A DNA stretch of 64,000 bases from Moorellales bacterium. GTDB taxonomy: Bacteria > Bacillota > DSM-521 > Neomoorellales > SLTJ01. Below, one piece after another: positions 44,149-60,360 of this stretch (within the stretch, counting starts at the first letter, position 1; each line of letters starts with the position of its first letter). Where the stretch lies: positions 16,782 through 80,781 of the forward strand of contig JBNARC010000004.1 in assembly GCA_049719955.1 (NCBI GenBank), in the 5' to 3' direction. Below the pieces are notes generated by a model. That model was not told the origin of the DNA. It made no database searches and saw only the letters and a program-made list of their open reading frames with translations. The position numbers were made by a program, and so were the translations under genes.

Positions 44149-45825
44149 GTGCTGGCCAACCTTTACGTAGAGAACCTGGCGTTGTTGGAACGACTGGAAC
44201 TGGATCTGGGCCCGGGCTTTAACGTGCTCACAGGTGAGACCGGAACCGGCAAGTCCCTGGTGGTAGACGCGGTAAACTTGCTGCTCGGGGCGCGGGCGGC
44301 CACCGACCTGATCCGCACGGGCACCGAACGGGCAGTAGTCCAGGGGGTTTTTTATTGCCCTCAGGTGGAAGCTCTGTGGTTGCGATTAGAGGAAATGGGG
44401 CTGGCTCAGGACCGCAAGGAGGCGCTGGTACTCACCCGAGAGCTCAACCGGAGCGGCCGGCACCTTTGCCGGGTAGGCGGCCGGGCGGTGGGGCTAGGTG
44501 CGTATCAGGAGTTGGCGCGTTTCCTGGTGGACGTTCACGGTCAGCACGAGCACCAGTCCCTGCTGCAGGGGGAGGTGCAATTATGGCTGCTGGACGTATT
44601 CGGGGGTGCCGATCTTCTGGCCCGGCGGCGCGCGGTAGAGGCGGCGTGGAGGAAATGGCGCCAAGCGGAGAGTATCTGGGCGGATCTCCTGCGGCAACAG
44701 CAGGAAGGGGAACGGGAGAAGGAGCTTTGGGAGTTCCAGGTGCGAGAGATCGCCGCGGCCGCTCTCAGGCCTCAGGAAGAAGAGGAGTTGGAGGCACAGG
44801 AGAGACTCCTCGCCGGGGCGGAAACCCTGGCGACGGCAGCGGAGGAGGTCTACCGGTTGCTGTTCGAGGCCCGGGCCGGAGCCAGTGCTTACGACCAGTT
44901 GAGCCGGGCGGCGGCGCAGCTCCGAGCGGTTCAGAACTTAGATCCGGTTTTGGGGGAGTTGGCCCGGGGCTTAGAAGAGGTAGCGGTGGGCCTTCAGGAG
45001 CAGGCGCGGTTTCTGCGCAACTATCGGGAGAACCTGCATTTCAGCGCCGAGCGTCTGGCGGAGGTGCAGGCGCGTCTTGCGCTAATCCGTCAGTTGCGCC
45101 GCAAGTATGGCGGCACGGTGGAGGAAATATTGGCGCGGGCGCAGGAACTGGAGCGGCGGCTGGAGGCGGCTTCGGATCGGGCCCAGGAAGTGGCAAGAGC
45201 CGAGAAGGAACGGGCGGCGGCGGAGGCGGATTACCGCAAGAATAGTGCGGCCTTGTCGCAGGCGAGGCGGGAAGCGGCCCGGCGGTTGGAGGCGGAGTTG
45301 GCGGCGGTGCTGGCCGACCTGGCCCTGCCTAATACGGTATTTTCGGTGGAGTTTAGGCCCACTGGACCCGGGCCTGCGGGGGAAGAGACGGTGGAGTTTA
45401 CCTTCAGCTCCAATCCGGGTGAACCGCCGCGGCCGGTGGCCAAAATCGCTTCCGGCGGAGAACTGTCACGCCTGATGCTGGCCCTGAAAAGCCTCATGGC
45501 CGAACACGATGCCATTCCCACCCTAATTTTCGACGAGATAGACGCCGGTCTAGGGGGTATGGCGGCCCGCGCCGTGGGTGAGAAGTTGCGGGAATTGAGC
45601 CGGTGGCACCAGGTAATTTGCGTAACTCACGCTCCACAGATCGCCGCCTATGCCGATCGCCATTTCGTTATCAGCAAGGAGGAAACCGAGGGACGCACGG
45701 TAACTCGGGTGCAGGAGTTGGACTGGGATGGAAGGGTAGCGGAATTAGCTCGCATGCTGGCCGGACGGGTAGATGAAGCGGCTCTATCCCACGCCCGACG
45801 GTTGCTAGAGCAAACCCGGGCATAA
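44149..45825 (+). CDS. recN: DNA repair protein RecN
   Basis: GTG 44149 lies 8 nt after GGAAGGG and gives 'VLANLYVENLALLE...VLTGETGTGKS'. The C-terminal 'SGGELSRLMLALK' and 'IFDEIDAG' are present. The track ORF starts at TTG 44098. Confidence 0.92.
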   Translation: MLANLYVENLALLERLELDLGPGFNVLTGETGTGKSLVVDAVNLLLGARAATDLIRTGTERAVVQGVFYCPQVEALWLRLEEMGLAQDRKEALVLTRELNRSGRHLCRVGGRAVGLGAYQELARFLVDVHGQHEHQSLLQGEVQLWLLDVFGGADLLARRRAVEAAWRKWRQAESIWADLLRQQQEGEREKELWEFQVREIAAAALRPQEEEELEAQERLLAGAETLATAAEEVYRLLFEARAGASAYDQLSRAAAQLRAVQNLDPVLGELARGLEEVAVGLQEQARFLRNYRENLHFSAERLAEVQARLALIRQLRRKYGGTVEEILARAQELERRLEAASDRAQEVARAEKERAAAEADYRKNSAALSQARREAARRLEAELAAVLADLALPNTVFSVEFRPTGPGPAGEETVEFTFSSNPGEPPRPVAKIASGGELSRLMLALKSLMAEHDAIPTLIFDEIDAGLGGMAARAVGEKLRELSRWHQVICVTHAPQIAAYADRHFVISKEETEGRTVTRVQELDWDGRVAELARMLAGRVDEAALSHARRLLEQTRA

Positions 45826-45906
45826 AACCCCAAACCTCAGGTTAACTTAAGCCTAGATCATCCTGGCCAGGACGTCGCTACAAACCAGGAGCGTGGTCTA
45901 GTACCT

Positions 45907-47193
45907 ATGCTTTCCGGTAGGCGCCGGACGTTCTGGCTTTTCTCTTTCTTGGTAGCCGTAAGCCTGTTTTTCTGGTATGCCCTCTACCTGGTGCCGGAGG
46001 AGCAGTGGCTAAGCACCGGCGAGGAAGTGCGCTTACACCTGGCTTTTCCGGCCAACATTCTGGCCCGCATGGGGAAATGGCAACCGGCCAGTCCGCAGAA
46101 CTGGCCGGTGGCAACCAGTCCCGGTCGGCTGGACCTTACGCTAGAGTTTCTGGGCCTTATTCCCGTTAAGACGGTAGTGGTGCGGATTGTTGAGCCGCCG
46201 CGAGTGGTTCCCGGAGGCCACTGCATAGGGGTTCTTCTAAGAACTTCGGGGGCGGTGGTGGTGGGTTTTGCCCCCGTCACAACCCGAGACGGTGAAACCC
46301 TCAACCCCGCTCGAGAGGCCGGCTTTCTCTTGGGGGACACCATTGTCAAGATCAACAACCAGGTGGTTGCCAGTGACGATCAGGTGGCTTGGCTGGTAGA
46401 TCGGGCCGGCCGGTCAGGCAGGCGGCTGCGGGTAACCGTTCGCCGGGCCGGAGAACAGAAGATCTTAGAGGTGCGGCCGCGCTTCTGTCGGGAGACCGGT
46501 AGGTACCGCATCGGGCTATACGTGCGGGATAGCGCCGCCGGGGTGGGCACCCTTACTTTCTATCTGCCACGGGAAAAGATATTCGCGGCCCTGGGACACA
46601 TGGTGGTAGACAGCAACAGCGAGCCTTTACCCTTGGCCGAGGGCCGCATCGTAGGGGCCAGCATCCAGGGGATCCAGCAGGGTAGGCGGGGTGAACCGGG
46701 AGAGAAGATCGGCCTTTTCTTGGACCAAGGAGATCTGGAGGGACGAATTGTTCGCAACACCCGTTTCGGCATCTTCGGGATCCTGGACAAGTTGCCTAAG
46801 ACGTTGCCAAACGCCCAAGCAGTGCCGGTAGCGCTGGCGCACCAAGTGCATCCCGGGCCGGCGGAAATGCTTACGGTGGTAAACGGAGAAGACATCGAAC
46901 GGTTCGATCTGGTCATCGAACGGGTAATGCCGGATCGTTGGGAGGAGGGGCGGGGCTTATTGCTGCGGGTGAATGACCCTCGTCTCCTGTCTCTAACCGG
47001 AGGAATTGTGCAAGGGATGAGCGGTAGCCCCATACTTCAGGACGGCGCCCTGGTGGGAGCGGTCACTCACGTCTTTATCCATGATCCAACGCGGGGCTAC
47101 GGGGTGCTGGCCGAGTGGATGCTGGAGGAGATGGGGTTGTTGGCCCGCAACCAGGTCGAAAAACCAAAAAGATTGGCGAACGGGTGTTGGTAG
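45907..47193 (+). CDS. spoIVB: SpoIVB signalling serine peptidase (PDZ + S55)
   Basis: It has an N-terminal TM helix, a PDZ region ('GFLLGDTIVKINNQ'), and 'AAGVGTLTFY' and 'GIVQGMSGSPILQDGALVGAVTHVF'. Confidence 0.9.
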   Translation: MLSGRRRTFWLFSFLVAVSLFFWYALYLVPEEQWLSTGEEVRLHLAFPANILARMGKWQPASPQNWPVATSPGRLDLTLEFLGLIPVKTVVVRIVEPPRVVPGGHCIGVLLRTSGAVVVGFAPVTTRDGETLNPAREAGFLLGDTIVKINNQVVASDDQVAWLVDRAGRSGRRLRVTVRRAGEQKILEVRPRFCRETGRYRIGLYVRDSAAGVGTLTFYLPREKIFAALGHMVVDSNSEPLPLAEGRIVGASIQGIQQGRRGEPGEKIGLFLDQGDLEGRIVRNTRFGIFGILDKLPKTLPNAQAVPVALAHQVHPGPAEMLTVVNGEDIERFDLVIERVMPDRWEEGRGLLLRVNDPRLLSLTGGIVQGMSGSPILQDGALVGAVTHVFIHDPTRGYGVLAEWMLEEMGLLARNQVEKPKRLANGCW

Positions 47194-47220
47194 CAGGGAT
47201 TCCTAATCCGGACGTCGAAC
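47193..47220 (+). promoter_or_regulatory. candidate sigma-H-type promoter of spo0A with an overlapping 0A-box-like sequence
   Basis: GCAGGGATT (47193-47201), a 12-nt spacer, then GTCGAAC (47214-47220). Against the consensus RNAGGAWWW-N11-12-RNNGAAT this has two mismatches. cGTCGAA resembles TGNCGAA. Confidence 0.3.
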
Positions 47221-47269
47221 AGCCTTCTTACAGGAAGAAGTTGCCAAGGATCGGGGAGGGGAAACCAAA

Positions 47270-48034
47270 GTGAGCGAACCCATTGGGATCCTGATCGCCG
47301 ATGACCACCGGGAGTTTTGCCAAGTCTTAGTGGATTACGTTAATTCCCAAAGCGATTTTCGGCTGGTTGGGGTGGCCTACAACGGCGAAGAGACACTGAG
47401 ACTAATAGCCGAAAAGCGGCCGCAGGTCGTGTTACTAGATATCATCATGCCGCACCTGGACGGTCTGGGAGTGTTGGAGCGGCTTTCGAGCGTTCCACCC
47501 GGCCAGCGGCCCCGGGTTATCGTGGTAACTACGGTGGGGAACGAGGCCACCACCAAGCGCTGCCTGCAATTGGGGGCGGACTACTACGTGCTGAAACCGT
47601 TCGACCTGGAGGTTCTGGGCACGCGCATTCGCCAGTTGGCCAACGGTCAGGTTCCGCCGCCTCCCGCCTCTACGCGAGCCCGCAATCTCGATTTAGAGGT
47701 AACCAAAATCATCCACCAGGTGGGGGTGCCGGCGCACATCAAAGGGTACCAGTACTTGCGCGAAGCCATCCTTATGGTAGTGGAGGAAATGAGTCTGCTG
47801 GGCGCGGTTACCAAGGAACTATATCCCTCGATCGCCCGCAAATACAATACCACCCCCAGTAGGGTGGAGCGGGCCATTCGCCACGCCATTGAACTGGCCT
47901 GGGAGCGGGGAAACCTGGAGACTATCAACCGCATTTTTGGGTATACCGTGCGTATGGACAAGGGGAAACCGACCAACTCGGAGTTCATTGCCATGATTGC
48001 CGACAAGCTGCGACTGGAATGCCGGGCTTCCTGA
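47270..48034 (+). CDS. spo0A: sporulation master regulator Spo0A
   Basis: It has a receiver domain ('[10 protein letters not shown]', '[13 protein letters not shown]') and the Spo0A-specific C-terminal '[17 protein letters not shown]' and '[12 protein letters not shown]'. Confidence 0.95.
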
Positions 48035-48106
48035 CCTCTCGAAGCTGATCGGAGATGGGCCGGGCACCGGTATTATTTCCCGGAGGCGGTTACATAATAA
48101 CTCCGG

Positions 48107-49294
48107 GTGATGAGCACGGAAACCTCCGGAACCGCCCGGGGCAATCCGGGAAGGTGCCAAGGGGATAAGGGCTTACGCCTTAAGGGTCGGGCAAGGGTAG
48201 ATCGCCTGACCAAGCGTTTGGTGCAACGGCTCAGGCCGAACGAGATTGCGGTCATCGATCACCCGGACCTCGACGGCGTGGCCGCGGAAGCCCTGCTGCG
48301 CTGCCGCCCCCGAGCGGTAGTCAACGCCAGTCTTTCAGTTACCGGCCGTTATCCCAATCCCGGTCCTTTACGTCTGCTCCAGAACGGGGTGCCGATCCTG
48401 GACGCCGTGGGTCCAGGCGTCATGGAGCAGGTAAGGGAAGAGGATGAAGTGGAGATCGTAGGCGCAGAGCTTTACTGCCGGGGACACCGGGTAGGTGAGG
48501 GGCGGCTTTTGACGATCGAAACGGTGGAGGCGGCGCTAATCCGGGCACGAGCGGACTTTCCCCGTCAACTGGCCCGTTTTGTGGAGAATACCCTCTGTTA
48601 CGCCCTGGAGGAGGTAGAGGCCGTTCTGGGGGGACTGGAGATTCCCCCGCTGGAAGTGGAGCTTAGGGATCGCCAGGTATTGGTGGTAGTGCGGGGCGAG
48701 CATTACCGGGAAGACCTGCGGGCCCTCAGACCTTTCATTCGGGAAGGCCGACCGATACTGGTGGCGGTGGATGGGGGAGCCGAAGCGCTCTTGGAATGCG
48801 GCTATAGGCCGCACCTTATTGTGGGGGACATGGACAGTATCGGTGATGCCGCCTTGAATTGCGGGGCGGAGTTGGTAGTTCACGCCTATCCGGACGGGCG
48901 GGCACCAGGTCTGGAGCGGGTTCGTTCCTTGGGATTAACGGCCAAGGTGGTGCGGGCTCCCGGAACCAGCGAAGACCTGGCCTTGTTGCTGGCCTATCAA
49001 CTGGGGGCCTCTCTGATCGTTACTGTGGGCAGTCACTTCAGCGTACTGGATTTCTTAAGTAAGGGCCGTCAGGGCATGGCGAGTACCTTGCTTACGCGCC
49101 TAAAGGTGGGCTCCCGGATGGTAGATGCTAAAGGCGTTAGCGTGCTCTACCGACAGTCGTTTCGTTTACGCCTGTTGCTAGAACTGGTGGCCGCTGCCCT
49201 GGTACCGGCGCTCACCTTGCTACTGGCCGCGCCGGTAACCAGTCAACTGCTGCGACTGGCGGCCTTGCGGTTGCGACTGGCGTTAGGGGTCTAG
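48107..49294 (+). CDS. steA: SteA-like protein (thiamine-pyrophosphokinase-like catalytic fold, C-terminal membrane anchor)
   Basis: Contains 'GRARVDRLTKRLVQRLRPNEIAVIDHPDLDGVAAEAL' and 'VAVDGGAEALLECGYRPHLIVGDMDS'. The C-terminal hydrophobic helix is 'LLLELVAAALVPALTLLLAAPV'. Confidence 0.8.
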   Translation: MMSTETSGTARGNPGRCQGDKGLRLKGRARVDRLTKRLVQRLRPNEIAVIDHPDLDGVAAEALLRCRPRAVVNASLSVTGRYPNPGPLRLLQNGVPILDAVGPGVMEQVREEDEVEIVGAELYCRGHRVGEGRLLTIETVEAALIRARADFPRQLARFVENTLCYALEEVEAVLGGLEIPPLEVELRDRQVLVVVRGEHYREDLRALRPFIREGRPILVAVDGGAEALLECGYRPHLIVGDMDSIGDAALNCGAELVVHAYPDGRAPGLERVRSLGLTAKVVRAPGTSEDLALLLAYQLGASLIVTVGSHFSVLDFLSKGRQGMASTLLTRLKVGSRMVDAKGVSVLYRQSFRLRLLLELVAAALVPALTLLLAAPVTSQLLRLAALRLRLALGV

Positions 49295-49309
49295 AACACT
49301 AACCCCGGG

Positions 49310-49990
49310 GTGGCGGTGGGAGTGCTGGCGGTGATAATTCCGGCTTACAATGAGGAAACCACGGTCGCCTTAACGGTAGAGGCTTGCTCTCGGTTGCGGC
49401 CGGTATCGGAAATAATCGTGGTAGATGATGGGTCCCGTGACGGCACGGCCGAGGCGGCCAGGCGGGCCGGGGCTAAGGTGTTGCGCCTCGGCCGTAACTG
49501 TGGAAAGGGCGAAGCCTTAAACTTGGGTTTGCGGCATACCCGGGCCCCTTACTTGGCTTTCGTGGACGCGGATATCGGGGCCACGGCCGGGGAGCTGAAG
49601 CGGCTGTGGGAGCCGGTGGAGGCAGGGATCCTGGATATGGCGGTCGGCGTACTATCCCCTTCGGCACGGCGAAGCCCGGGTTTGGTAAGAACTTTGGCCA
49701 GGGTGGGAGTGTACCGCCTGGCCGGTTGTCGCCTGCGGGCTCCCCTTTCCGGTCAGCGGGTCCTGGACGCTCGGGTGGCGCAAAGCTTATATCCCCTGGC
49801 CGGCGGCTTCGGGGTGGAGGTAGACCTGACCGTACGGGCGCTGTGGGCGGGTTTCCGGGTGGGAGAACTGCCGGTTGCCATGAGCCACCGCTATACCGGT
49901 AACGATTGGGCCGGTATCAGCCACCGGAGCCGCCAGCTATGGGAGGTAGGGTGTACGCTTTGGCATATCTCCCGGACGCGCCGGTGTTAG
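49310..49990 (+). CDS. family-2 glycosyltransferase (polyprenol-phosphate sugar transferase-like)
   Basis: Contains 'VIIPAYNEE', 'VVDDGSRDGT', 'GKGEAL' and 'AFVDADI'. Confidence 0.85.
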   Translation: MAVGVLAVIIPAYNEETTVALTVEACSRLRPVSEIIVVDDGSRDGTAEAARRAGAKVLRLGRNCGKGEALNLGLRHTRAPYLAFVDADIGATAGELKRLWEPVEAGILDMAVGVLSPSARRSPGLVRTLARVGVYRLAGCRLRAPLSGQRVLDARVAQSLYPLAGGFGVEVDLTVRALWAGFRVGELPVAMSHRYTGNDWAGISHRSRQLWEVGCTLWHISRTRRC

Positions 49991-50787
49991 GTCTCGGAGC
50001 GGCCTTTCTAACGGCGGTGGCCGTTACCTATCTGGCCGTGGCCGGGTGGCCGTTTTGGCCGAGGCGCTCTAACTATCGCGGCCACCTTGTACCCCAGGCG
50101 GGCGCGGCCGTGTGGTGGGGTGCGGGGGTGGGCCTCTTGACCCTTTGGTGGAGGGGATTCGATCGGGTCGAAGCCGGACTGATGCTGGCAGCGGTAACGG
50201 TCCTGTTCTTGGCTGGCCTCCTGGACGATTGCTGGCCGGGTATTCAGGGCAAAGGCCTCCGGGGGCACCTGCGCTACTGGTGGCAGATGGGACCGGACCC
50301 CGCCCTGATCAAGGCGGCCTCGGGGGTGGCGGTGGGGCTGGCTCAAGCAGCCTTCAGAGGCCTGCCCTGTTGGCAGGGGATCCTGGACACGGCCACAGTG
50401 GCCCTGGCGGCTAATACCATAAACCTTTTGGATCTGCGCCCCGGCCGCGCCCTGAAGGGTTTGCTTTTTCTGGCCGGTTTGCTGCTGGTTCTGACCGGGG
50501 GGCAAGCTCTTGCCTTGCTGGCTCCGTTGGTGGGCGCGGCGGTGGCGTTTCTGCGCTCCGATCTGAGGGAACGGGCTATGTTAGGAGACGCGGGTGCCAA
50601 CGCCTTAGGAGCGGGGCTGGGGATGGCGGCGGTACTGAGCCTGGGGCCGGCGCCAGAGGCGGGACTGACCGGGGCTCTGTTTGTACTTCACCTTTACGCC
50701 GAAAGGGAATCCTTAAGCCGGTTGATAGAGCGGGTGCCTTGGCTGGCCCGATTAGACGGTCTGGGGCGATACCCGGCAGAGAGGTAG
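49906..50787 (+). CDS. MraY/WecA-like (GT4 family) polyprenyl-phosphate sugar-phosphate transferase homologue
   Basis: It is a polytopic membrane protein with 'AANTINLLDLRPGRALKG' and 'MLGDAGANALGAGLG'. The start is uncertain: ATG 49906, ATG 49939, or GTG 49984 overlapping the GT2 stop. Confidence 0.7.
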   Translation: MGRYQPPEPPAMGGRVYALAYLPDAPVLGLGAAFLTAVAVTYLAVAGWPFWPRRSNYRGHLVPQAGAAVWWGAGVGLLTLWWRGFDRVEAGLMLAAVTVLFLAGLLDDCWPGIQGKGLRGHLRYWWQMGPDPALIKAASGVAVGLAQAAFRGLPCWQGILDTATVALAANTINLLDLRPGRALKGLLFLAGLLLVLTGGQALALLAPLVGAAVAFLRSDLRERAMLGDAGANALGAGLGMAAVLSLGPAPEAGLTGALFVLHLYAERESLSRLIERVPWLARLDGLGRYPAER

Positions 50788-50794
50788 CGGGAAC

Positions 50795-51892
50795 TTGCTC
50801 AGCAGCCGAGTAGGAACGATAATAGAGGTTCGGGAGAAACGACCAGGATGCTCGGAACTCACGGTAGAGATCGAGGGTGAGAGGTCTTTAGCCGTAAACT
50901 ACGAACCCCTGACCGGACCGGCAACGGTAGGAGACCGGGTACTGTTAAACGTAACCGCGGTTCAACTGGGGTTGGGGACCGGCGGTTATCATTTCGTCAT
51001 GGCCAATCTTTCCCGGCAAACTACCGTTGCGGACGGGCCGGGCCATATCATTAAACTCCGGTACACGCCCCTGCAGTTCAAGGTACTGGCAATAGAGGAG
51101 GAAAACTCTCCTTACCGTCCGGCCTTAGAGGCCTGCGATTCCTTGGAGGGCATGCCGGTCATCGCCGCCCCCTTACATAGCTTACTGGCTCCGGCGGTGG
51201 GCGGGGTCAAGCTCGCCAATCCCGGGTTAAAGGTCGCCTACGTTATGACCGAAGGCGGGGCCCTTCCTTTAGCCTTTAGCCGCCTGGTTCGCCAGTTGCG
51301 GGAGAAAGGTTTGTTGGTGGCCACGGTCACCGTAGGGCAGGCGTTTGGAGGAGATTTGGAGGCGGTTAACCTTTATAGCGGACTTTTGGCCGTCCGGGCA
51401 GTAGTTAAGGCCGACGTGGCGGTGGTGGCCATGGGACCCGGCCACGTGGGAACCAACAGCCGCTGGGGTTTCAGCGGTCTGGAGCAGGGGCAGACCATAA
51501 ACGCGGTCTGGGCGCTTGGCGGCAAAGCCGTGGTCGTACCGCGCCTGAGCGTTGCCGATCCCCGGGCGCGGCACCGGGGACTCAGTCACCATACGGTTAC
51601 CGTTTTGGGACGGGTGGCCTTGGCGCCGGCAGTTATCGCCTTACCCGAACTGTCTTCGGAACTCCGGCAGCGCGTGTATCAACAGATCCGGGAAGCCGGT
51701 CTCCAAGAGCGGCACTTATTGGCGGAAATAGACGGCCGCCCCGCCCTGGACCTGCTGGAAGGAGAGGGTATCCAAATGGAGAGCATGGGCCGGGGTCGGG
51801 AGCAGGATGAGGTCTTCTTCGCCGCGGGAGGTGCCGCCGGTATACTTGCCGCTCGCCTGGCAGCGGGCCAGTTTTCCGGTTCGTCCCTATAG
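50795..51892 (+). CDS. DUF3866-family protein
   Basis: The 365-aa protein contains 'VGDRVLLNVTAVQLGLGTGGYHFVMANL'. No characterised function is known to me. Confidence 0.7.
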   Translation: MLSSRVGTIIEVREKRPGCSELTVEIEGERSLAVNYEPLTGPATVGDRVLLNVTAVQLGLGTGGYHFVMANLSRQTTVADGPGHIIKLRYTPLQFKVLAIEEENSPYRPALEACDSLEGMPVIAAPLHSLLAPAVGGVKLANPGLKVAYVMTEGGALPLAFSRLVRQLREKGLLVATVTVGQAFGGDLEAVNLYSGLLAVRAVVKADVAVVAMGPGHVGTNSRWGFSGLEQGQTINAVWALGGKAVVVPRLSVADPRARHRGLSHHTVTVLGRVALAPAVIALPELSSELRQRVYQQIREAGLQERHLLAEIDGRPALDLLEGEGIQMESMGRGREQDEVFFAAGGAAGILAARLAAGQFSGSSL

Positions 51893-52035
51893 GCTCTCTC
51901 GGGGGGCCCGGCATGGCGGCGCAAGAAAAAGAGACGGCCGACCGTGCTGCCGTCCCACCGTGGCCTTCCCGGCTTGGCGGCTGCGGTAGTGGAGCGCTAT
52001 ACTGGGTTTGCACCGGGTTGGAAGGAGGAAGCCGC

Positions 52036-52566
52036 ATGGTGGGAGAGGAGAAAACTTTGGATTCCAGACGAATATTCTCGGGACGGGTAATCGGGCTTCG
52101 GGTGGACCGAGTAGCCTTGCCTTCGGGCGGCGAAAGTTTGCGGGAAATTGTTGAGCACCGGGGGGCAGTAGTGATAGCGGCCGTAAACGAGCGGCAGGAA
52201 GTAATGCTGGTCCGGCAGTACCGCAAGGCGGTGGAAGAAGTCCTTTGGGAGCTCCCTGCCGGTACCTTGGAACCGGACGAGGAACCGTTGGCCTGTGCCC
52301 GGCGCGAACTGAAGGAGGAGACGGGCCTGGAGGCCAGGGAGTGGCAACTTTTGGTGCAGTTTTATTCCAGTCCCGGTTTCTGCACCGAAAGACTATATCT
52401 GTTCATGGCCACCGGTCTCACCGAAGGTCGGCAGGCGACCGATACCGACGAGAACCTTACCTGTCACTGGGTTCCCCTGGAGCAGGCGTGGGCCATGGCC
52501 CGGCGGGGCGAAATAGCCGACGCCAAGACGCTGGTAGGACTGCTGGCCTTGAAATGCTGGGCGTGA
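52036..52566 (+). CDS. NUDIX hydrolase (ADP-ribose pyrophosphatase-like)
   Basis: ATG 52036 follows GGAAGGAGG. The Nudix box 'GTLEPDEEPLACARRELKEETGL' is present. Confidence 0.88.
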   Translation: MVGEEKTLDSRRIFSGRVIGLRVDRVALPSGGESLREIVEHRGAVVIAAVNERQEVMLVRQYRKAVEEVLWELPAGTLEPDEEPLACARRELKEETGLEAREWQLLVQFYSSPGFCTERLYLFMATGLTEGRQATDTDENLTCHWVPLEQAWAMARRGEIADAKTLVGLLALKCWA

Positions 52567-52634
52567 CTACGGACGGTGTAAGAGTGGAGGGATAGGAGCT
52601 GAGGGTTCGTCTGGCAGCCGATGCCAGCGGAGCG

Positions 52635-53297
52635 GTGGAAGCGGCAGCCAAGGGTGAGGCGGTGGTAATAGTCGACGTGGTAGATATGTCTACCACCCTG
52701 GAAAGCGCCCTGGAAGCGGGGGCGGTAGCGGTTTTTGGCGCCAGCCCTTTATTCCACTGCTCGCCGGTACCCGTGTCGCCCGGGCGCGTGGGCTACGCGG
52801 CCGGACAAGAAGCCCAGAGGCGAGGAACGGAGGTAGTAGTAGTCGCCGAACCCCGAGTAGGCCCGGAGTGCGAGCGCCGTCGCCAGGCCGGTGCGGTGCT
52901 GGCGGGAATTCGGGCCGGAGGGGCAGAGGTAGCTGCGGTGTTGCCCAATCTGGGAAAGGAAACCCCACGTCTTTTTCCTCTGACGGGGCGAGTGGTGGTG
53001 GCGGTAACGGGTAGCGGCGGAGTGGCCTTCGATGCTGCGTTTAACGCCGGTACACCGGTTACCACGGCTACCGTGGCCAGGACTTACCGGAGCCGAGGAC
53101 TGGAGCCGGCCGTGAAAGGCGCCCGCCGGGCCTTGGCTTTGGCCCGCCTTCATAATCGAGACCTATGCGTAGTCGCAGCCAGCGGTCGTTGCCTGGAAGA
53201 CCTGCTGGCGGCCCGTTTCCTGGTTCATTTCCTGGCCAGTGTCGGACGGAGAGAATGTTTTCTACCTTCAAGGAATAACGATCTAATATCGGTGTGA
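52635..53297 (+). CDS. hypothetical protein (weak N-terminal resemblance to the ComB / 2-phosphosulfolactate phosphatase family)
   Basis: It is a 220-aa ORF on the operon strand. 'VVIVDVVDMSTTLESALEAGA' resembles the ComB-family 'VVVIDVLRATTT' motif. No other support was found. Confidence 0.45.
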   Translation: MEAAAKGEAVVIVDVVDMSTTLESALEAGAVAVFGASPLFHCSPVPVSPGRVGYAAGQEAQRRGTEVVVVAEPRVGPECERRRQAGAVLAGIRAGGAEVAAVLPNLGKETPRLFPLTGRVVVAVTGSGGVAFDAAFNAGTPVTTATVARTYRSRGLEPAVKGARRALALARLHNRDLCVVAASGRCLEDLLAARFLVHFLASVGRRECFLPSRNNDLISV

Positions 53298-54010
53298 GGC
53301 CACAAGGAAAGAGCCGGGAGGAGAATAGGTTGTGGGGGAGGCCCATTAGTAGCCACTCGTTCCCGGGTGACCCGCGTTTCTTTCTGCTGGTAGCAGTGTT
53401 CTTCCTGGGCGGTCTGACGGCGGGAGCGGCGGTAGTTCACAGCCTTAACGCCGAACAGAGCGCCGAACTGAGCCAATTCCTGGACCTCTCGCTAGCGGGG
53501 CTGGTCTCCGGCAGTCTCGAAGGAATGGCTTTGGTCCGTAAGGCCTGGGGTCAGAACCTGAGTTACGTCCTTCTTCTAGGATTTCTTGGATTGACGGCAG
53601 TGGGAGTACCGGCGGTCTTGGCTCTGCTGGCCTGGAGGGGCTTCACGCTGGGCTTTACCGTGGGCTTCCTGATTACCGACAAGGCGGGTACCGGCCTGCT
53701 GCTGTCGGCTTTGGCGGTACTGCCGGCCAACGTCTTTTACGTACCCGGTTTCCTTTTGGTGGGTACGGGAGCGGCAACCCTTTCGTGGCATCTGATGCGC
53801 GGGGGGCGGTTCTCTTTCCCCTTGAGTTGGTGGGAGCAGTTTCGCAACTACCTGGCGGTAGTGGTAGTGGCCATGCTCTTGGTGGGCGTTGGCGGTTTGA
53901 TAGAGGCTTATGCCGCTCCGGCGGTCATACGCTGGCTACTCTCCCCGCTTCTGCCGGGAGGAAGGATTTCGGATCTCGGCGTGGAACTCATGTTAGGACT
54001 GGGGCAGTGA
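53294..54010 (+). CDS. spoIIM: stage II sporulation protein M
   Basis: It is a five-helix membrane protein with 'WRGFTLGFTVGFLI' and 'LPANVFYVPGFLLV'. The likely true start is TTG 53330. Confidence 0.78.
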   Translation: MRPQGKSREENRLWGRPISSHSFPGDPRFFLLVAVFFLGGLTAGAAVVHSLNAEQSAELSQFLDLSLAGLVSGSLEGMALVRKAWGQNLSYVLLLGFLGLTAVGVPAVLALLAWRGFTLGFTVGFLITDKAGTGLLLSALAVLPANVFYVPGFLLVGTGAATLSWHLMRGGRFSFPLSWWEQFRNYLAVVVVAMLLVGVGGLIEAYAAPAVIRWLLSPLLPGGRISDLGVELMLGLGQ

Positions 54011-54011
54011 A

Positions 54012-54920
54012 ATGGCAGAAGAGGGAAGGACCATGGAAGTTTGGGTAGATCGGTTCTTGCACTACCTGGCGATTGAGCGCGGTTTGGCCGAGAACTCGCT
54101 GGCCTCTTATCATCGAGACCTTCAACAGTATTTGAGCTTTCTGGCCGAACGGGCGGCCGGGGTAGAAGAGAGTACCACGGGTCTGGTTTTGGCCTATCTG
54201 GGAGAGTTGGAGCAGAAGGGCAGGAAACCATCTACCATTTCCCGTCACCTGGCCAGTCTGAAGGCGTTTTATCAGTTCCTATTGCGAGAACAAGTGGTGA
54301 GTCGCGATCCTACCGCGGAACTGGAGGCTCCGCGGATTGGGCGGCGTCTTCCCAGGGTCCTAAGCGTGGAGGAAGTGGAGTTCCTGCTGGGGCAGCCTCA
54401 AACCGGCCGGGCCGCCGGCCTACGGGACAAGGCGATGCTGGAACTATTATACGCCACGGGCTTTCGGGTGTCGGAGCTGGTATCCCTGAACGTGGGGCAG
54501 CTTAACCTGGATCTCGGCTTTGTGCAATGCGTTGGCAAAGGGCAGAAGGAACGGGTAGTGCCCATGGGTTCGGTAGCGATTTTCTGGCTGCGTCGTTACC
54601 TAGAACGGGGTCGGCCCCAACTGGTTAAGGAAGGGGGAGATATGGAGGCCCTGTTCGTAAACCACCAGGGTCAGCGCCTCACCCGCCAGGGTTTCTGGAA
54701 GATCCTCAAGAAATACGCCCGCAAGGCCAACCTGGATACCAACATTACGCCCCACACCCTCCGACATTCGTTTGCCACCCACCTTCTGGAGAACGGGGCC
54801 GATCTCCGGGTGGTGCAGGAGCTCCTGGGTCACGCCGACATTGCCACTACCCAGATCTATACCCACCTAACCAGGCGTCACCTGCGGGAGGTCTACCGGC
54901 TGACCCATCCCCGGGCCTAG
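54012..54920 (+). CDS. xerD: site-specific tyrosine recombinase XerD
   Basis: Contains 'RDKAMLELLYATGFRVSELVSL' and 'HTLRHSFATHLLENGADLRVVQELLGHADIATTQIYTHL'. Confidence 0.92.
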   Translation: MAEEGRTMEVWVDRFLHYLAIERGLAENSLASYHRDLQQYLSFLAERAAGVEESTTGLVLAYLGELEQKGRKPSTISRHLASLKAFYQFLLREQVVSRDPTAELEAPRIGRRLPRVLSVEEVEFLLGQPQTGRAAGLRDKAMLELLYATGFRVSELVSLNVGQLNLDLGFVQCVGKGQKERVVPMGSVAIFWLRRYLERGRPQLVKEGGDMEALFVNHQGQRLTRQGFWKILKKYARKANLDTNITPHTLRHSFATHLLENGADLRVVQELLGHADIATTQIYTHLTRRHLREVYRLTHPRA

Positions 54921-54938
54921 CCTACGGGAGGTAATGGT

Positions 54939-56123
54939 TTGGCTCGCGCGGCGGTAATAGTTTTGGACAGCGTAGGCGTTGGGGCTTTACCGGATGCGGA
55001 CCGATACGGAGACGCGGAGGCCAACACTTTGGGGCATGTCGCCGAGGCGGTAGGGGGGCTAAATCTTCCGCATTTGGGCCGATTGGGATTGGGCAACATC
55101 GTTCCCATAAGGGGAGTGAGGCCCGAACCTTGTCCCCGGGCGCATTACGGAAAAATGGCCGAGCGTTCAGCGGGTAAGGATACTACTACCGGACATTGGG
55201 AATTGATGGGATTGGTGACCGAGCAACCCTTTCCGGTATATCCCCAGGGCTTCCCCCCCGAGATAATCGAACCCTTCGAAAAGGCCATCGGTCGGCGGGT
55301 GTTGGGGAACCGTCCGGCTTCGGGCACCGAGATCATTGCCGAGCTGGGGGAAGAACACCTGCGAACCGGCCGACCGATAGTCTATACCTCCGCAGATTCG
55401 GTTTTTCAAATTGCCGCCCACGAAGAAGTAATATCGGTAGAGGAGCTCTACCGGTACTGCCTTTTGGCCCGGCGTCTGCTCACCGGCAAACATGCGGTGG
55501 GCCGCGTAATCGCCCGCCCCTTTCTCGGTCGGCCGGGGTCCTTCTATCGCACTTCCCGACGTCGGGATTTCGCCCTTCCTCCCCCTCGCCCCACCCTTCT
55601 GGACCGCTTACGGGAGCAGGGGCAGGAGGTGATAGGCATAGGAAAGATCGAGGACATCTTTGCCGGCAGGGGCTTAACCCGGGCCTATCATACCGAGGAT
55701 AACGCCGACGGGATGGAGACCACCGTGAAGATCCTTCGGCAACCTTTTTCCGGTTTGGTTTTCACCAACTTAGTGGACTACGACATGCGTTACGGCCACC
55801 GAAACGATCCCCAAGGTTATGCTCGGGCTTTGGAGGAGTTCGATTCCCGGCTGCCCGAACTCCTTTCCGTGTTAGGGGCCGACGACCTTCTGATAATCAC
55901 GGCTGACCACGGCTGTGACCCCACCACCCCCGGCACCGATCATACCCGGGAATACGTACCTATACTGGCTTGCTTGGAGGCCTCGCAACCGGGCCGCGAC
56001 CTAGGTACCCGGGAAACCTTCGCCGACGTGGCCGCGACTTTGGCGGAGATGTTCGGCCTAGCGGCCCCGGAAGTGGGGACAAGCTTCTGGGGAGAGATGC
56101 ACAACGGACTGGACGGTAATTAG
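54939..56123 (+). CDS. deoB: phosphopentomutase
   Basis: Contains '[15 protein letters not shown]', '[10 protein letters not shown]' and 'TADHGCDP'. Confidence 0.92.
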
Positions 56124-56157
56124 CGAAACGGTTACCCATCTTGAGCCCCGGCTGGGG

Positions 56158-56922
56158 TTGTCACCTCAAATAGGCCTGGTTTTAGGCTCGGGCCTGGGTG
56201 AGGTTGTAGAATCCCTAGAAGTCAAGGTTACGGTGCCTTTTTCGGAAGTACCCCATTTTCCGCCTGTCACCGTACCCGGACACCAAGGGCGACTGCTGGC
56301 GGGATATTGGGGGCGCTGGCCGGTGTTGGTCTTTCAGGGGCGATTTCACTACTACGAAGGCTATTCGCTGGCCCAGGTCACTTTTCCGGTACGGATACTG
56401 GCGGCCCTGGGGGCCAAGGCGATCATCCTCACCAATGCCGCCGGTGGCTTGCGCGAGGATTGGCGGGTGGGCGACCTCATGCTCATCCGCGATCACCTGA
56501 ACTTTATGGGGGACAATCCTCTGCGGGGTCTTACCGATCCGCGACTGGGGCCTCGGTTTCCGGGACTAGGCGAGGCTTACGACCCGGAACTGCGACGCCG
56601 GGCCAAGGCGGCGGCCGAGCGGCGGGGTCTTCCCCTGCGCGAAGGAGTTTATGCGGCCGTGCCCGGCCCCAGTTACGAAACCCCGGCCGAAGCCCGTTTT
56701 CTTCGGGCGGCGGGGGCGGACGCGGTGGGCATGTCGACGGTTCCCGAGGTAATTGTGGCCCGCCAAGTGGGACTACGGGTATTGGCTGTTTCATGTTTGA
56801 CCAATATCCTCTTCGCTTTTGAGGCTGCGGATCACGAAACCGTAGTGCGCCGGGCCCGGCAGGGTTCCCTCGCCTTGGCGGGGTTGCTGGAGGAGTTTTT
56901 AAGGGAGTTGGAAGAATTATGA
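56158..56922 (+). CDS. punA: purine nucleoside phosphorylase (PNP-I/PunA type)
   Basis: Contains 'GLVLGSGLG', 'GHQGRL', 'GRFHYYEG' and 'VGMSTVPEVIVA'. The N-terminus appears shorter than usual, and the start is uncertain (TTG 56158 or CTG 56152). Confidence 0.88.
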   Translation: MSPQIGLVLGSGLGEVVESLEVKVTVPFSEVPHFPPVTVPGHQGRLLAGYWGRWPVLVFQGRFHYYEGYSLAQVTFPVRILAALGAKAIILTNAAGGLREDWRVGDLMLIRDHLNFMGDNPLRGLTDPRLGPRFPGLGEAYDPELRRRAKAAAERRGLPLREGVYAAVPGPSYETPAEARFLRAAGADAVGMSTVPEVIVARQVGLRVLAVSCLTNILFAFEAADHETVVRRARQGSLALAGLLEEFLRELEEL

Positions 56923-58226
56923 ATCTAGGGGCGGCGGAACTAATCGGGCGAAAGCAGCGGGGGGAAAAGCACACCCCCGAGGAGATCGCGTTCCTGGTGG
57001 AAGGTTACCTGCGAGGGACGGTTCCCGATTACCAAATGGCCGCCTGGTTAATGGCCGTATACTTCCGGGGTCTGGACTCGGAAGAGACTTGGGCCCTAAC
57101 CCGTTTACTGGTGGATTCGGGAGAGGTTCTTAATCTAGAGTCGGTTCCAGGAATCAAGGTGGACAAGCACAGTACGGGCGGAGTGGGAGACAAGACCACT
57201 CTGGTAGTAGTTCCCCTGGCGGCAGCCTGCGGGCTGACGGTGGTGAAATTGGCCGGCCGCAGCCTGGGCCATACCGGTGGCACTCTCGACAAGTTGGAGG
57301 CCATCCCGGGAATGCGGGTAGAGCTCTCTAGGGAAGAGATTATCTCTCAGGCCACCCGAATAGGAATGGTGCTTGCCGGCCACACCGCCGAACTGGTTCC
57401 TGCCGACCGCAAGCTCTACGCCCTCCGTGACGTTACCGCCACCGCCGAATGCCCTCCCCTCATTGCCGCCAGCATTATGAGCAAGAAAATTGCCGGGGGC
57501 GCTCAGGTTATCGTGCTGGATGTTAAGGTGGGAGAAGGAGGTTTTTTGCCTGGCCTGGAAGAGGGCAGGAACTTGGCTCGGGCAATGGTAGAATTGGGAA
57601 GGAGGGCCGGGCGTCCTGCGGCCGCGGTGCTGAGCCGCATGGACCAGCCTTTGGGCCGGGCGGTGGGCAACGCCCTAGAAGTAGAGGAAGCGGTGGAGGT
57701 ACTTCAGGGACGGGGACCGGCGGACGTAAGGGAGCTTTCGCTGGTGTTGACTTCCCAACTCCTAGTGCTCGCCGGCAAGGTCGAGAACCTGGAGAAAGGC
57801 CGGGAGCTGGCGGAGGAAGGTTTGGACCAAGGTCGGGCCTGGGAGAAGTTCAGACAACTGGTGTCGGCGCAAGGAGGCCGGGTAGAAGTTTTGGAAGCAG
57901 GAGGGTTGGCTCAAGCCCGTTATCGGGTGCCAATTGTGGCCGCCCGCGAGGGTTATGTACAGAAGGTGGCCGCACGCTCCGTGGGAGAGGCGGCCCGGGT
58001 CCTGGGTGCCGGCCGGCAGGCCCTGGGCCAGGCGGTAGACCCGGCGGTGGGCATAGTAGTTCTGGCCAAGACCGGCGATTACGTTACTGCCGGCCAACCC
58101 CTGGCGGTTATTCATGCCCAGGACCGGGACCGGGCCGAGACCCTGGCCGGGCACCTGGCTTCAGCCTGGGAAATTACCGAGTATCCTCCCCCTTACCGTC
58201 CCCTAGTATTCGAATATTGGAGTTAG
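56919..58226 (+). CDS. pdp: pyrimidine-nucleoside phosphorylase
   Basis: Contains 'VDKHSTGGVGDKT' and 'GRSLGHTGGTLDKLE'. Length is 435 aa. Confidence 0.92.
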   Translation: MNLGAAELIGRKQRGEKHTPEEIAFLVEGYLRGTVPDYQMAAWLMAVYFRGLDSEETWALTRLLVDSGEVLNLESVPGIKVDKHSTGGVGDKTTLVVVPLAAACGLTVVKLAGRSLGHTGGTLDKLEAIPGMRVELSREEIISQATRIGMVLAGHTAELVPADRKLYALRDVTATAECPPLIAASIMSKKIAGGAQVIVLDVKVGEGGFLPGLEEGRNLARAMVELGRRAGRPAAAVLSRMDQPLGRAVGNALEVEEAVEVLQGRGPADVRELSLVLTSQLLVLAGKVENLEKGRELAEEGLDQGRAWEKFRQLVSAQGGRVEVLEAGGLAQARYRVPIVAAREGYVQKVAARSVGEAARVLGAGRQALGQAVDPAVGIVVLAKTGDYVTAGQPLAVIHAQDRDRAETLAGHLASAWEITEYPPPYRPLVFEYWS

Positions 58227-58300
58227 TACGTTCGGCGCTTCCGCATATTTGCCACCTTCCGGTGTCAAGCTGATAGTGTAGGAGTTCACGCCGGGAGGGA

Positions 58301-59485
58301 ATGGTTTTGCGCCGGGCTAAGTCATACCTAACCGGGCTGTTGTTAGCCGCTCTGCTCCTCGTGCCGGGCTTCGCCGCCGCAGCCGAGGAAACGGCGACGC
58401 CCCTGCGAGTAGAGGGGAAGGGGGCGTTGTTGATGGAGGCCGAGGGCGGAGACGTACTGTTTGCTCAAGAGGCGGATACAAAATGGTATCCGGCCAGCGC
58501 CACCAAAATAATGACCCTAATCTTGGCTCTGGAGGCGGTGAAGCAAGGCCGGGCGAGTCTTGACGACAAGGTAGTAACCAGTGAACATGCCGCCGGTTAC
58601 GGGGGATCGCAAGTTTGGCTGGAACCGGGAGAAATCTTCACTCTGAGGGAAATGCTTCTGGCCATAGCCGTGGGTTCGGCCAACGATGCCAGCGTGGCGG
58701 TAGCCGAACACCTGGCCGGATCTGAGGCCGCCTTCGTAGAACAGATGAATGCCAAGGCCCGAGAGATAGGGGCCACCAATACCCATTTTGTAAACTGTCA
58801 CGGACTGCACCACCCCGACCACTACACCACGGCGAGAGATTTGGCGCTAATGGCCCGCTACGCCGTCCACCAAGTTCCGGAAATTCTGGATTTCACCTCG
58901 GTGAAGGAGTACACTTTTCGCGAGAAACCCAGGCTGGTACTGTACAACACCAATAAGCTTCTTTGGTGGTATCCCGGGACTCTGGGGCTTAAGACCGGCA
59001 CCACGCCCGAGGCCGGGCGTACCTTGGTCACGGTGGCGGAGCGGGACGGTCTAAGGCTGATCGGCGCGGTTCTGGGCGTAGACCGGCCTCGCGGCCATTT
59101 TACCGAGTCCATGAAGCTTCTAAATTTCGGCTTCGCCCAGTACCGGTGGCAGGAATTCTTCCCCGCCGGGACCACCGTGGGAGAGGTCAGGGTAGCCAAA
59201 GGGGCGGGCGCTAAGGTAGCGGCGGTACCGGAGCAAAGGGTAGGAGTGGCCCTCCGCAAGGACGGCCGGGAAAAGGCGGAGGTTCGGGTAGAGCTGGAAG
59301 CGGAAGTAGCGGCTCCGGTGCGGGAGGGACAGGTCGTGGGTACGGTAGTGATCCTGAAGAACGGTCAGGAGGTACGGCGGGTGCCATTAGTGGCCTCAGC
59401 CGAAGTTCCCCGGGCTACTCTTTGGCAGGAGATGGGAAGAACTTTAACCAGGCTACTGATTATTGGAAATACTGGTACCATCTAG
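58301..59485 (+). CDS. dacF: sporulation-type D-alanyl-D-alanine carboxypeptidase (S11)
   Basis: It has a signal peptide, the 'PASATKIMT' SxxK motif, 'SANDA' and 'KTGTT'. It lies directly upstream of the spoIIA operon, as dacF does in Bacillus. Confidence 0.88.
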   Translation: MVLRRAKSYLTGLLLAALLLVPGFAAAAEETATPLRVEGKGALLMEAEGGDVLFAQEADTKWYPASATKIMTLILALEAVKQGRASLDDKVVTSEHAAGYGGSQVWLEPGEIFTLREMLLAIAVGSANDASVAVAEHLAGSEAAFVEQMNAKAREIGATNTHFVNCHGLHHPDHYTTARDLALMARYAVHQVPEILDFTSVKEYTFREKPRLVLYNTNKLLWWYPGTLGLKTGTTPEAGRTLVTVAERDGLRLIGAVLGVDRPRGHFTESMKLLNFGFAQYRWQEFFPAGTTVGEVRVAKGAGAKVAAVPEQRVGVALRKDGREKAEVRVELEAEVAAPVREGQVVGTVVILKNGQEVRRVPLVASAEVPRATLWQEMGRTLTRLLIIGNTGTI

Positions 59486-59511
59486 CAGGAATTTGGCTTC
59501 CTCCGGCGAAT
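59485..59511 (+). promoter_or_regulatory. sigma-H-type promoter of the spoIIAA-spoIIAB-sigF operon
   Basis: GCAGGAATT (59485-59493), an 11-nt spacer, then GGCGAAT (59505-59511). This matches the consensus RNAGGAWWW-N11-12-RNNGAAT with no mismatch. Confidence 0.55.
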
Positions 59512-59548
59512 CCCCGAAGCTAAGAAGGGCAACTACGGGGGGAGCAAA

Positions 59549-60351: not shown

Positions 60352-60360
60352 TGACGGACC

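Follow-up and report, generated by a model that had tools for sequence, protein, structure and literature searches.

The locus considered here lies in the genome of a Moorellales bacterium (GenBank assembly GCA_049719955.1, contig JBNARC010000004.1, positions 16,782 to 80,781 of the forward strand) and was analysed in a window of 64,000 nucleotides, that is, the whole stretch of DNA under study. Downstream of spo0A this window carries four genes that encode, in order, SteA, a soluble glycosyltransferase (GT) of the GT2 type, a short membrane transferase with an MraY fold, referred to below as GT4L, and a protein of the DUF3866 family. A preliminary description made from the sequence had reported four co-directional, closely spaced or overlapping genes at 48107-51892, and the open reading frames (ORFs) agree with it exactly, all being on the plus strand; each of the motifs that it listed (IVGDMDS, NTINLLDLRPG and MLGDAGANALG) was found in the translations.

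Proteins encoded at the steA locus

The protein encoded by the first gene is, as judged from sequence, unambiguously an orthologue of SteA, with 487.3 bits (cutoff 150) over residues 26-391 against the NCBIfam model NF040608 ("putative cytokinetic ring protein SteA") and E = 5e-72 against the solved Mycobacterium tuberculosis SteA (PDB 9hmy). Pfam matches to PF12555 (SteA-like_C, 37.6 bits) and PF04263 (TPK_catalytic) were also obtained, both motifs of the TPK-like nucleotide pocket (VDGGA and IVGDMDS) are there, and residues D222/G223/G224 and G240/D241/D243/S244 are conserved in at least 90% of 47 homologues. Hydropathy places a C-terminal membrane helix in the hydrophobic stretch at about 352-381. 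These results uphold the initial view of a SteA-like protein with a TPK-like fold and a C-terminal anchor, and SteA is accordingly described here as a predicted cytoplasmic, dimeric protein with a TPK-like pocket and a C-terminal membrane anchor. The phosphonucleotide pocket of SteA has been described as conserved, and the Corynebacterium glutamicum protein is stabilised by guanosine diphosphate (GDP) or uridine diphosphate (UDP), its natural ligand not having been identified (PMC12977500). Septal localisation and activation of NlpC/P60 hydrolases by SteAB have been reported in Corynebacterium and Mycobacterium only (PMC6705760, PMC12977500).

The GT2 protein (222-226 residues) matches PF00535 with 92.8 bits (cutoff 23.3) and showed no hydrophobic or transmembrane segment in a hydropathy scan, in agreement with its earlier designation as a soluble glycosyltransferase. 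It contains the motifs PAYNE, DDGSxD and NxGKGEA and the DAD form of DxD, and D40/G41/S42/D44 and D86/D88 are conserved in at least 90% of 49 homologues. Its best full-length NCBIfam similarities, all of them under the cutoffs, are to AglJ (79.5 vs 325), PpgS (61.7 vs 370) and a Dol-P-hexose transferase, and its N-terminal half resembles glucosyl-3-phosphoglycerate synthase; the neighbours found in the PDB are GpgS, ArnC, GtrB and DPMS.

The third protein, GT4L, has 282 residues, about nine transmembrane helices and a short amphipathic C-terminal tail. Its PF00953 score is marginal (28.2 bits, cutoff 27), many homologues have no precomputed PF00953 match, and no match to any NCBIfam model, including MraY, WecA and TagO, was found. 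A family profile built from 48 homologues recovered MraY chains from the PDB at E = 1e-7, and the AlphaFold (AF2) model, which is of high confidence (pLDDT 93, pTM 0.90), gave in a Foldseek search of the PDB significant matches only to MraY and human DPAGT1 (24 chains, TM score 0.57-0.66, probability 1.0). The fold of the polytopic MraY/WecA-like transferase proposed in the preliminary description is thereby sustained. The signature of the protein is GLxDD, GLRGH, ANxxNLLDLRPGR and MLGDAGANALG; D96/D97, N159/N162/D165 and D217 align with the DD, NxxNxxD and GD motifs of MraY and are invariant in 48 diverse homologues, as well as conserved in 49-51 of 51 homologues gathered independently of the motifs. 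On the evidence of sequence and model, GT4L appears to be a distinct short branch of the polyprenyl-phosphate N-acetylhexosamine-1-phosphate transferase (PNPT) superfamily and neither MraY, WecA nor TagO.

The DUF3866 protein aligns with positions 2-318 of the 318 positions of PF12982 (433 bits), a family that comprised 2214 clusters (50% identity) at E <= 1e-3 in a profile search of 1.84 billion proteins. The structure prediction suggested earlier for this protein yielded a confident AF2 model (pLDDT 94.6) with a small N-terminal beta-barrel and one or more alpha/beta domains, for which Foldseek found in the PDB only weak, partial similarities to P-loop-like folds; the Walker A motif is absent. 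The DUF3866 profile had no match among PDB sequences, a Pfam scan of all 50 alignment members at E <= 10 gave noise only besides DUF3866 itself, and the 150 best matches listed from the search of 1.84 billion proteins included no remote relatives. It is a cytoplasmic protein of no assigned function.

A conserved steA-steB-GT2-GT4L unit

A gene-neighbourhood survey, as recommended in the preliminary description, was run on 80 genome loci around DUF3866 homologues, whose ORFs were annotated with the window proteins, and independently on 80 metagenome loci around GT4L homologues (surveyed loci bear numbers preceded by L). It showed that SteA and the two glycosyltransferases are coupled well beyond this genome, and the lack of co-occurrence that would have spoken against the module was not seen. 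In 55 DUF3866 loci with at least 9 kb of upstream sequence the genes for SteA, GT2 and GT4L were all present in 40, all missing in 14 and partially present in one, and spo0A stood directly before steA in 35. Upstream of GT4L, in the 44 metagenome loci with sufficient sequence, SteA was found in 40, SteB in 39 and GT2 in 34. The usual order in Clostridia is recN-spoIVB-spo0A-steA-[gene of about 290 residues]-GT2-GT4L-(optional insert)-DUF3866-nudix-(220-residue gene)-spoIIM-xerD. Most GT2-GT4L junctions of the DUF3866-anchored survey typically overlap by 4 nucleotides or lie within about 10 nucleotides, and GT2::GT4L fusion ORFs were observed in 12 of the 80 metagenome loci and in the fusion protein P0178, which is encoded directly 3' of steA-steB.

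The unit occurs in Clostridia, including thermophilic ones, in a Bacilli metagenome-assembled genome (MAG) and in many Actinomycetota. In actinobacterial loci such as L068, L101, L135, L147 and L159 the order is recN-steA-steB-(GT2)-GT4L-pyrG-(M20)-DUF3866-nudix-xerD, while Nocardiopsis dassonvillei (L082) shows tlyA-nadK-recN-steA-steB-GT4L followed by genes for a MurJ-like flippase and a GT-B glycosyltransferase. GT4L also directly precedes a MurJ-like flippase in L134, L136, L141, L152 and L166, a GT-B gene being next in all of these except L134, where the contig ends inside the flippase gene. The flippase scored 156 bits against a MurJ equivalog cutoff of 235, and the GT-B proteins belong to the GT4/GT1 Pfam families and not to MurG. 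In the Bacilli MAG (L085) steA-steB-GT2-GT4L is followed by a GH18 chitinase-like gene (L085:8419-9582) and lies beside molybdopterin genes, away from recN and with no spo0A or DUF3866, and RecN and Spo0A were unmatched in the available upstream sequence of L089, L103, L107 and L156.

Two loci of unusual structure were recorded on the way. In a Clostridia MAG (L053:4100-6268) a local inversion has put spo0A and spoIVB, still upstream of steA, on the other strand, and the SteB-like ORF is shorter (E = 6e-21). An actinobacterial-type metagenome contig (L086:12615-14774) encodes a pyrG::NUDIX fusion of 719 residues just before xerD; the assembly quality of this contig is doubtful because several of its genes, including steB and MurJ, look fragmented.

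The interpretation best supported by the gene orders is that steA-(steB)-GT2-GT4L would constitute one functional unit rather than a product of inherited gene order, because the pattern of SteA, GT2 and GT4L is all-or-none, GT2::GT4L fusions recur, the unit has moved intact to other genomic contexts and start and stop codons overlap. SteA::SteB fusions reported in the literature (PMC12977500) point in the same direction, as does the single depletion phenotype described for all targeted Clostridioides difficile genes (see below), even if clouded by polarity (PMC12548448). That the locus holds four unrelated housekeeping genes in the very stable recN...xerD region is, in view of these observations, very improbable, in spite of the fact that the flanks (tlyA-nadK-recN...nudix-xerD) are conserved from Clostridia to Actinomycetota and that DUF3866 is separable from the remaining genes, as inheritance of gene order would predict.

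Absence of steB from the steA locus in the Moorellales lineage

In other genomes the gene of about 290 residues between steA and GT2 encodes a member of the MctB/SteB family (PF11382, 110-163 bits), and in 88 of 95 SteA loci steB lies after steA and before GT2 or GT4L. When a profile was made from the SteB proteins of 44 loci, it gave no match at E <= 10 in the six-frame translation of the 64-kb window. The two closest relatives, from separate assemblies (L087 and L088), have the same SteB-less steA-GT2 junction, and in the SteA tree the window groups with L087, L088 and L037 in one clade without SteB, L002 and L015 forming a neighbouring one. Since the junction recurs across the assemblies of relatives and throughout a clade of the SteA tree, loss of steB at the steA locus is most simply read as a trait of the lineage. 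An assembly error as the cause of the missing gene was considered and rejected, as steB is also missing from three assemblies of this clade that are independent of one another (L001, L087 and L088) and from three further loci.

It had been proposed that in the window the two glycosyltransferases and DUF3866 fill a "SteB/pyrG slot". This is not the case: besides the prevalence of steB after steA, actinobacterial loci hold steB, the glycosyltransferases and pyrG together. Given that relatives keep steB and pyrG beside the transferases, the latter would be old companions of steA and steB would have been lost here. The order recN-steA-steB-pyrG-nudix-xerD of mycobacteria, from this comparison of gene orders, looks like a reduced form of a fuller ancestral arrangement. 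The SteB-less lineage represents a natural experiment that parts the role of SteA with the enzymes from its role with SteB.

DUF3866 and the Nudix gene

Concerning the four-gene module proposed initially, the coupling of SteA, GT2 and GT4L holds, whereas DUF3866 is not an equal member, being separable and linked to M20 and Nudix genes. It lies downstream of GT4L in 21 of 36 metagenome loci and is absent in the other 15, and in 14 of 55 loci there is no SteA block beside it. In 21 loci GT4L and DUF3866 are separated by inserts, namely a PepT-like M20 peptidase, oxoacid:ferredoxin oxidoreductase genes, a transporter or pyrG. The PepT-like M20 metallopeptidase (TIGR01883, 373 bits; e.g., L003:8853-10004) stands directly 5' of DUF3866 in 28 of 80 loci; such pairs were also seen in L009, L016, L018 and L066, and loci of Armatimonadota and Tumebacillus have them without a SteA block. 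No M20 gene is present between GT4L and DUF3866 in the window.

A Nudix gene directly follows DUF3866 in 41 of 62 loci, and fusions of DUF3866 to a C-terminal NUDIX domain were found in at least four separate protein clusters (P0019, P0260, P0371 and P0388; 548-574 residues). NCBIfam similarities of the Nudix protein to NudE, YffH and NudK are all under the cutoffs. The longest Nudix ORF of the window starts at 51913, which adds 41 residues at the N-terminus (window 51913-52035) relative to the called start at 52036.

Because DUF3866 is absent from 15 of the 36 loci, free of the unit in 14 of the 55 and fused to Nudix domains, it is regarded, on the basis of gene context, as a separable neighbour that would be tied more closely to the Nudix gene than to steA and would not belong to the core of the SteA unit. 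The fusions and the adjacency suggest that DUF3866 and the Nudix protein share a function related to nucleotides or nucleoside diphosphate (NDP)-sugars, and this cytoplasmic sub-block probably has a nucleotide or nucleotide-sugar role.

The counterpart in Clostridioides difficile

Genes cdr20291_1053-1057 of C. difficile, annotated as a pyrophosphokinase (373 residues), an exported protein (291), a GT2 (230), a GT family protein (274) and a DUF3866 protein (355), were found to be essential in two transposon sequencing (Tn-seq) studies and are among 15 essential genes without pathway assignment, and the authors of the study consider essential genes of unknown function a high-value set for antibiotic development (PMC12548448). 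Knock-down by CRISPR interference (CRISPRi) produced short, swollen, phase-bright and chaining cells, all targeted genes behaving alike (PMC12548448). The correspondence between this cluster and the window relies on the proteins of C. mangenotii (L078) and on matching protein sizes (373, 291 and 230 residues in L078); the identities of the window proteins to those of C. mangenotii are 47% for SteA, 38% for GT2, 32% for GT4L and 42% for DUF3866. A literature search on the C. difficile 630 locus names CD1215-1219 did not find a functional study.

These data bear on the idea that Spo0A controls the unit and that it acts in sporulation, either at the asymmetric septum or in synthesis of the cortex. 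The start of steA lies 75 nucleotides after the end of spo0A, spoIVB, spoIIM and the sigF operon are nearby, and steAB have been noted 3' of spo0A in some Clostridia, where the possibility of a sporulation role was raised (PMC12977500). Nevertheless, the unit is present in Actinomycetota without spo0A, and Bacilli-type and further loci have it at a distance from spo0A. Vegetative growth of C. difficile requires the genes (PMC12548448), and a promoter and terminator scan showed no signal above background that would separate or link the genes. A sporulation-specific role is therefore unlikely on comparative data and has been set aside; of the explanations weighed here we give it the least credence, and the role at the sporulation septum contemplated in the preliminary description is not borne out.

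A possible lipid-linked glycan pathway

From the observed gene identities, folds, conserved catalytic motifs, linkage and fusions we infer a lipid carrier, sugars, an export step and a functional link to SteA, and it can be hypothesized that the locus is a version lacking SteB of an ancient envelope unit (steA-steB-GT2-GT4L) that is conserved widely among Gram-positive bacteria and would work as a lipid-linked glycan pathway together with SteA, a reading whose chances of being right or wrong we judge to be evenly balanced. On the inner side of the membrane GT4L would transfer a sugar-phosphate to a polyprenyl phosphate carrier, and the soluble GT2, coupled or fused to GT4L, would add or transfer a further sugar from a nucleotide sugar; the lipid-linked product would then be flipped outward for use in the wall at the site of division. 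The membrane-anchored SteA could work with this enzyme pair by sensing a nucleotide substrate or product in its UDP/GDP-type pocket, or by organising the pair at the septum, and where SteB is present the signal might pass to it, SteB then positioning a wall hydrolase.

A polyprenyl-phosphate-linked, extended and exported sugar is suggested by the MraY fold with retained aspartates, by the partner glycosyltransferase (mostly GT-A, in some loci GT-B) and by the MurJ-like neighbours, and the UDP/GDP-type pocket makes SteA a plausible sensor or organiser of the pathway. Thus, of the lipid-linked glycan pathway coupled to SteA that was put forward initially, the coupling is supported by genomic linkage, fusions and flippase neighbours, and the chemistry is suggested by gene context.

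Several observations weigh against this hypothesis. The GT2 protein falls under every NCBIfam equivalog cutoff, and soluble GpgS is as close to it as the polyprenyl-phosphate transferases are. In GT4L, DLRPGR replaces the DGxDGL of MraY, so that the second aspartate is gone, the lysine of DDxxK is not conserved, and no HH[HN] motif corresponding to the loop-E HHH region, which in MraY binds the nucleotide substrate, UDP-MurNAc-pentapeptide, was found in any of 51 homologues. Owing to the replaced aspartate and the missing loop-E HHH, the donor of GT4L and even its activity are uncertain, and with the altered motif and absent loop E the donor might be a non-canonical one or the role non-catalytic. 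The cluster in the window encodes neither a flippase nor an extracellular ligase. In addition, both surveys comprised the best 80 matches and are not random samples, the metagenome loci come without taxonomy, and synteny of the entire recN...xerD region extends across phyla, so that part of the linkage could be inherited order. CRISPRi is polar in C. difficile and the contributions of single genes are not separable (PMC12548448). Finally, published work assigns a biochemical role to none of the four proteins; this agrees with the initial remark that none had a defined role in Firmicutes, the C. difficile counterparts being listed as essential and unassigned.

The altered motifs of GT4L also favour a different division of labour, namely a split enzyme of the GtrB/DPM1 type. 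Catalysis would fall to GT2 alone, which would produce a polyprenyl-monophosphate sugar; a degenerate GT4L of the MraY fold would hold GT2 at the membrane and offer it the lipid phosphate, and the product would serve the external glycosylation of wall polymers or proteins. Such an arrangement would account for a GT2 devoid of the membrane segments of GtrB, ArnC and archaeal DPMS, for its best full-length similarities being to polyprenyl-phosphate hexosyltransferases (AglJ, PpgS and the Dol-P-hexose transferase), for fusions in which GT2 stands at the N-terminus and the membrane domain after it, in the manner of GtrB-type enzymes, and for the loss in GT4L of the loop-E HHH and of one aspartate of the MraY signature. 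However, the three aspartate-containing PNPT catalytic motifs are invariant in GT4L, which is hard to reconcile with a mere anchor, and 10 of 44 loci have GT4L without any GT2, some of them with a MurJ-like flippase and a GT-B. Furthermore, no GT-C extracellular transferase or GtrA-like flippase was noticed beside the unit, a weak point given that neighbours were screened with a fixed set of profiles only. On balance this alternative is considered unlikely.

The lipoteichoic acid of C. difficile and its relatives is a glycerate-containing polymer of N-acetylglucosamine (GlcNAc)-phosphate whose enzymes are not known, and the unit might make one secondary wall or membrane polymer of this sort, with SteA and SteB loosely associated. 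The essentiality of the C. difficile cluster with an envelope phenotype (PMC12548448), the likeness of the GT2 N-terminal half to glucosyl-3-phosphoglycerate synthase and the availability, in GT4L, of a fold of the GlcNAc-1-P transferase type are all compatible with it. Still, the range of the unit (thermophilic Clostridia, a Bacilli MAG and many Actinomycetota) is far wider than that known for any single polymer type, and the tightest partner of GT4L is SteA/SteB and not a polymerase or ligase, which makes a dedicated polymer quite improbable.

Returning to the lipid-linked glycan pathway, a bolder version of it may be entertained tentatively, although we regard it as doubtful. SteA would not primarily be a regulator of wall hydrolases but the nucleotide-binding part of an ancient, hitherto unrecognised "shadow lipid II-like" pathway of Bacillota and Actinomycetota, composed of GT4L as primer, GT2 or GT-B and a MurJ-like flippase, which would supply a lipid-linked glycan at the division site. 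The UDP- or GDP-containing ligand of SteA would be a substrate or product of the neighbouring enzymes, and hydrolase control through SteB would be an add-on kept by Mycobacteriales after loss of the enzymes and dropped by the Moorellales-type lineage. If true, this would also account for the essentiality of the C. difficile cluster.

The SteAB cell-separation system, the structure of which was solved recently, has been proposed as a drug target in M. tuberculosis, and a link between SteA and the enzymes provides testable candidates, i.e., a nucleotide sugar or lipid intermediate bound by SteA and the lipid-linked product of the enzyme pair. The cluster itself is common and partly known, as its essentiality in C. 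difficile and the position of SteAB beside spo0A were noted before. By contrast, the systematic link of SteAB with a PNPT-type protein and GT2, the fusions, the flippase variants and the SteB-less form were not found described in the literature searched: glycosyltransferases go unmentioned in the 2019 paper in which SteAB was named, the 2026 paper on the SteAB structure mentions neither glycosyltransferases, lipid nor MurJ (PMC12977500), and searches for SteA with undecaprenyl or glycosyltransferase, and for SteA/SteB with C. difficile, found no functional study.

Gene context in the window

The coordinates of the genes are collected in Table 1. Gene calls and starts were taken from the public record JBNARZ010000004.1 (GCA_049721505.1, a Moorellales MAG; locus L001), whose DUF3866 protein is identical residue for residue. 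The called order is dxs, tlyA, nadK, argR, recN, spoIVB, spo0A, steA, GT2, GT4-family, DUF3866, nudix, an unnamed 220-residue gene, spoIIM and xerD, and it bears out the backbone tlyA-nadK-argR-recN-spoIVB-spo0A-...-nudix-...-xerD described earlier. From the end of steA there are 16 nucleotides to the start of the GT2 ORF and 27 to its called start, GT2 and GT4L overlap by 52 nucleotides with the GT4L start of the public record (49939), and GT4L and DUF3866 are 7 nucleotides apart. The promoter and terminator scan of the locus gave nothing above shuffled background and no operon boundaries, an Rfam scan of 45000-55000 gave zero matches, and repeats in the region are chance-like in appearance.

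Table 1. Genes in and around the steA locus, with positions in the 64-kb window.
Feature	Position	Strand	Evidence
spoIVB (context)	45907..47193	+	TIGR02860 404 bits
spo0A (context), directly 5' of steA, Firmicute-type arrangement	47270..48034	+	TIGR02875 388 bits
steA	ORF 48107..49294, called gene 48110..49294	+	NF040608 487 bits; PF12555, PF04263; PDB 9hmy E = 5e-72; hydropathy
GT2 (soluble GT-A glycosyltransferase)	ORF 49310..49990, called 49322..49990	+	PF00535 92.8 bits
GT4L (short MraY-fold membrane transferase)	ORF 49906..50787, called 49939..50787	+	PF00953 28.2 bits; AF2 and Foldseek
DUF3866 protein, 365 residues	50795..51892	+	PF12982 433 bits
Nudix hydrolase, ADP-ribose / NDP-sugar pyrophosphatase type	called 52036..52566	+	PF00293 86 bits
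Conserved 220-residue ORF between the Nudix gene and spoIIM (context)	52635..53297	+	only sub-threshold ComB-like matches
spoIIM (context)	53330..54010	+	TIGR02831 130 bits; called gene
xerD-type recombinase (context)	54033..54920	+	Phage_integrase and SAM_1 domains

Homologues of the 220-residue ORF occupy the same position in 20 of 62 loci, with 31 invariant columns among 13 sequences; it has no Pfam or NCBIfam family (sub-threshold similarity to 2-phosphosulfolactate-phosphatase-like/ComB-like proteins only) and no relative in the PDB. The region 3' of xerD (54939-61900, calls of L001) contains genes for phosphopentomutase, purine and pyrimidine nucleoside phosphorylases and a D-Ala-D-Ala carboxypeptidase, spoIIAA-spoIIAB-sigF, dodecin and spoVA genes, a typical, ordinary sporulation and nucleoside-salvage neighbourhood.

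Comparison with known systems

The closest known relatives of GT4L are the enzymes of the PNPT superfamily (MraY, WecA, TagO and DPAGT1), with which it has in common the fold (TM score 0.57-0.66) and with whose DD, NxxNxxD and GD(x)G motifs it aligns. It differs from them in its smaller size (by about 80-100 residues) and number of helices (about 9 as against 10-11), in lacking the loop-E HHH and in features of its own, namely DLRPGR, GLRGH and the amphipathic C-terminal tail ERxSLSxxIE...LDxLGR. Similarly, GT2 shares with GtrB, DPM1, ArnC, AglJ and PpgS and with GpgS the GT-A fold and the DDGSxD, NxGKG and DxD motifs, and these are the proteins to which its best NCBIfam and PDB similarities point; nevertheless, the scores are far under the cutoffs and GT2, instead of having membrane or interface helices of its own, is paired with or fused to a protein of the PNPT fold.

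When whole pathways are compared, some actinobacterial loci contain the same three kinds of step as the MraY-MurG-MurJ pathway of lipid II (lipid-phosphate priming, addition of a second sugar and flipping), although their MurJ-like protein is below the equivalog cutoff and their GT-B is not MurG. In the window the second position belongs to a GT-A enzyme (GT2), and there is no flippase gene in the vicinity.

The C. difficile cluster cdr20291_1053-1057 resembles that of the window in its position after spo0A (by synteny with the Clostridioides/Romboutsia loci L044, L074 and L078) and in the order SteA, GT2, GT4-family and DUF3866. Four of its five genes are present in the window, the difference being the SteB-like "exported protein" of 291 residues between steA and GT2. 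With respect to SteAB of Mycobacteriales (Rv1697/Rv1698; C. glutamicum cgp_1603-1604), the window differs by having no steB or pyrG and by carrying two transferase genes and DUF3866 after steA, and a RipA-type hydrolase partner is not known for this organism. Both systems share SteA orthology, the pocket motifs and the C-terminal membrane helix, and both are flanked by tlyA-nadK-recN on the 5' side and by nudix-xerD on the 3' side.

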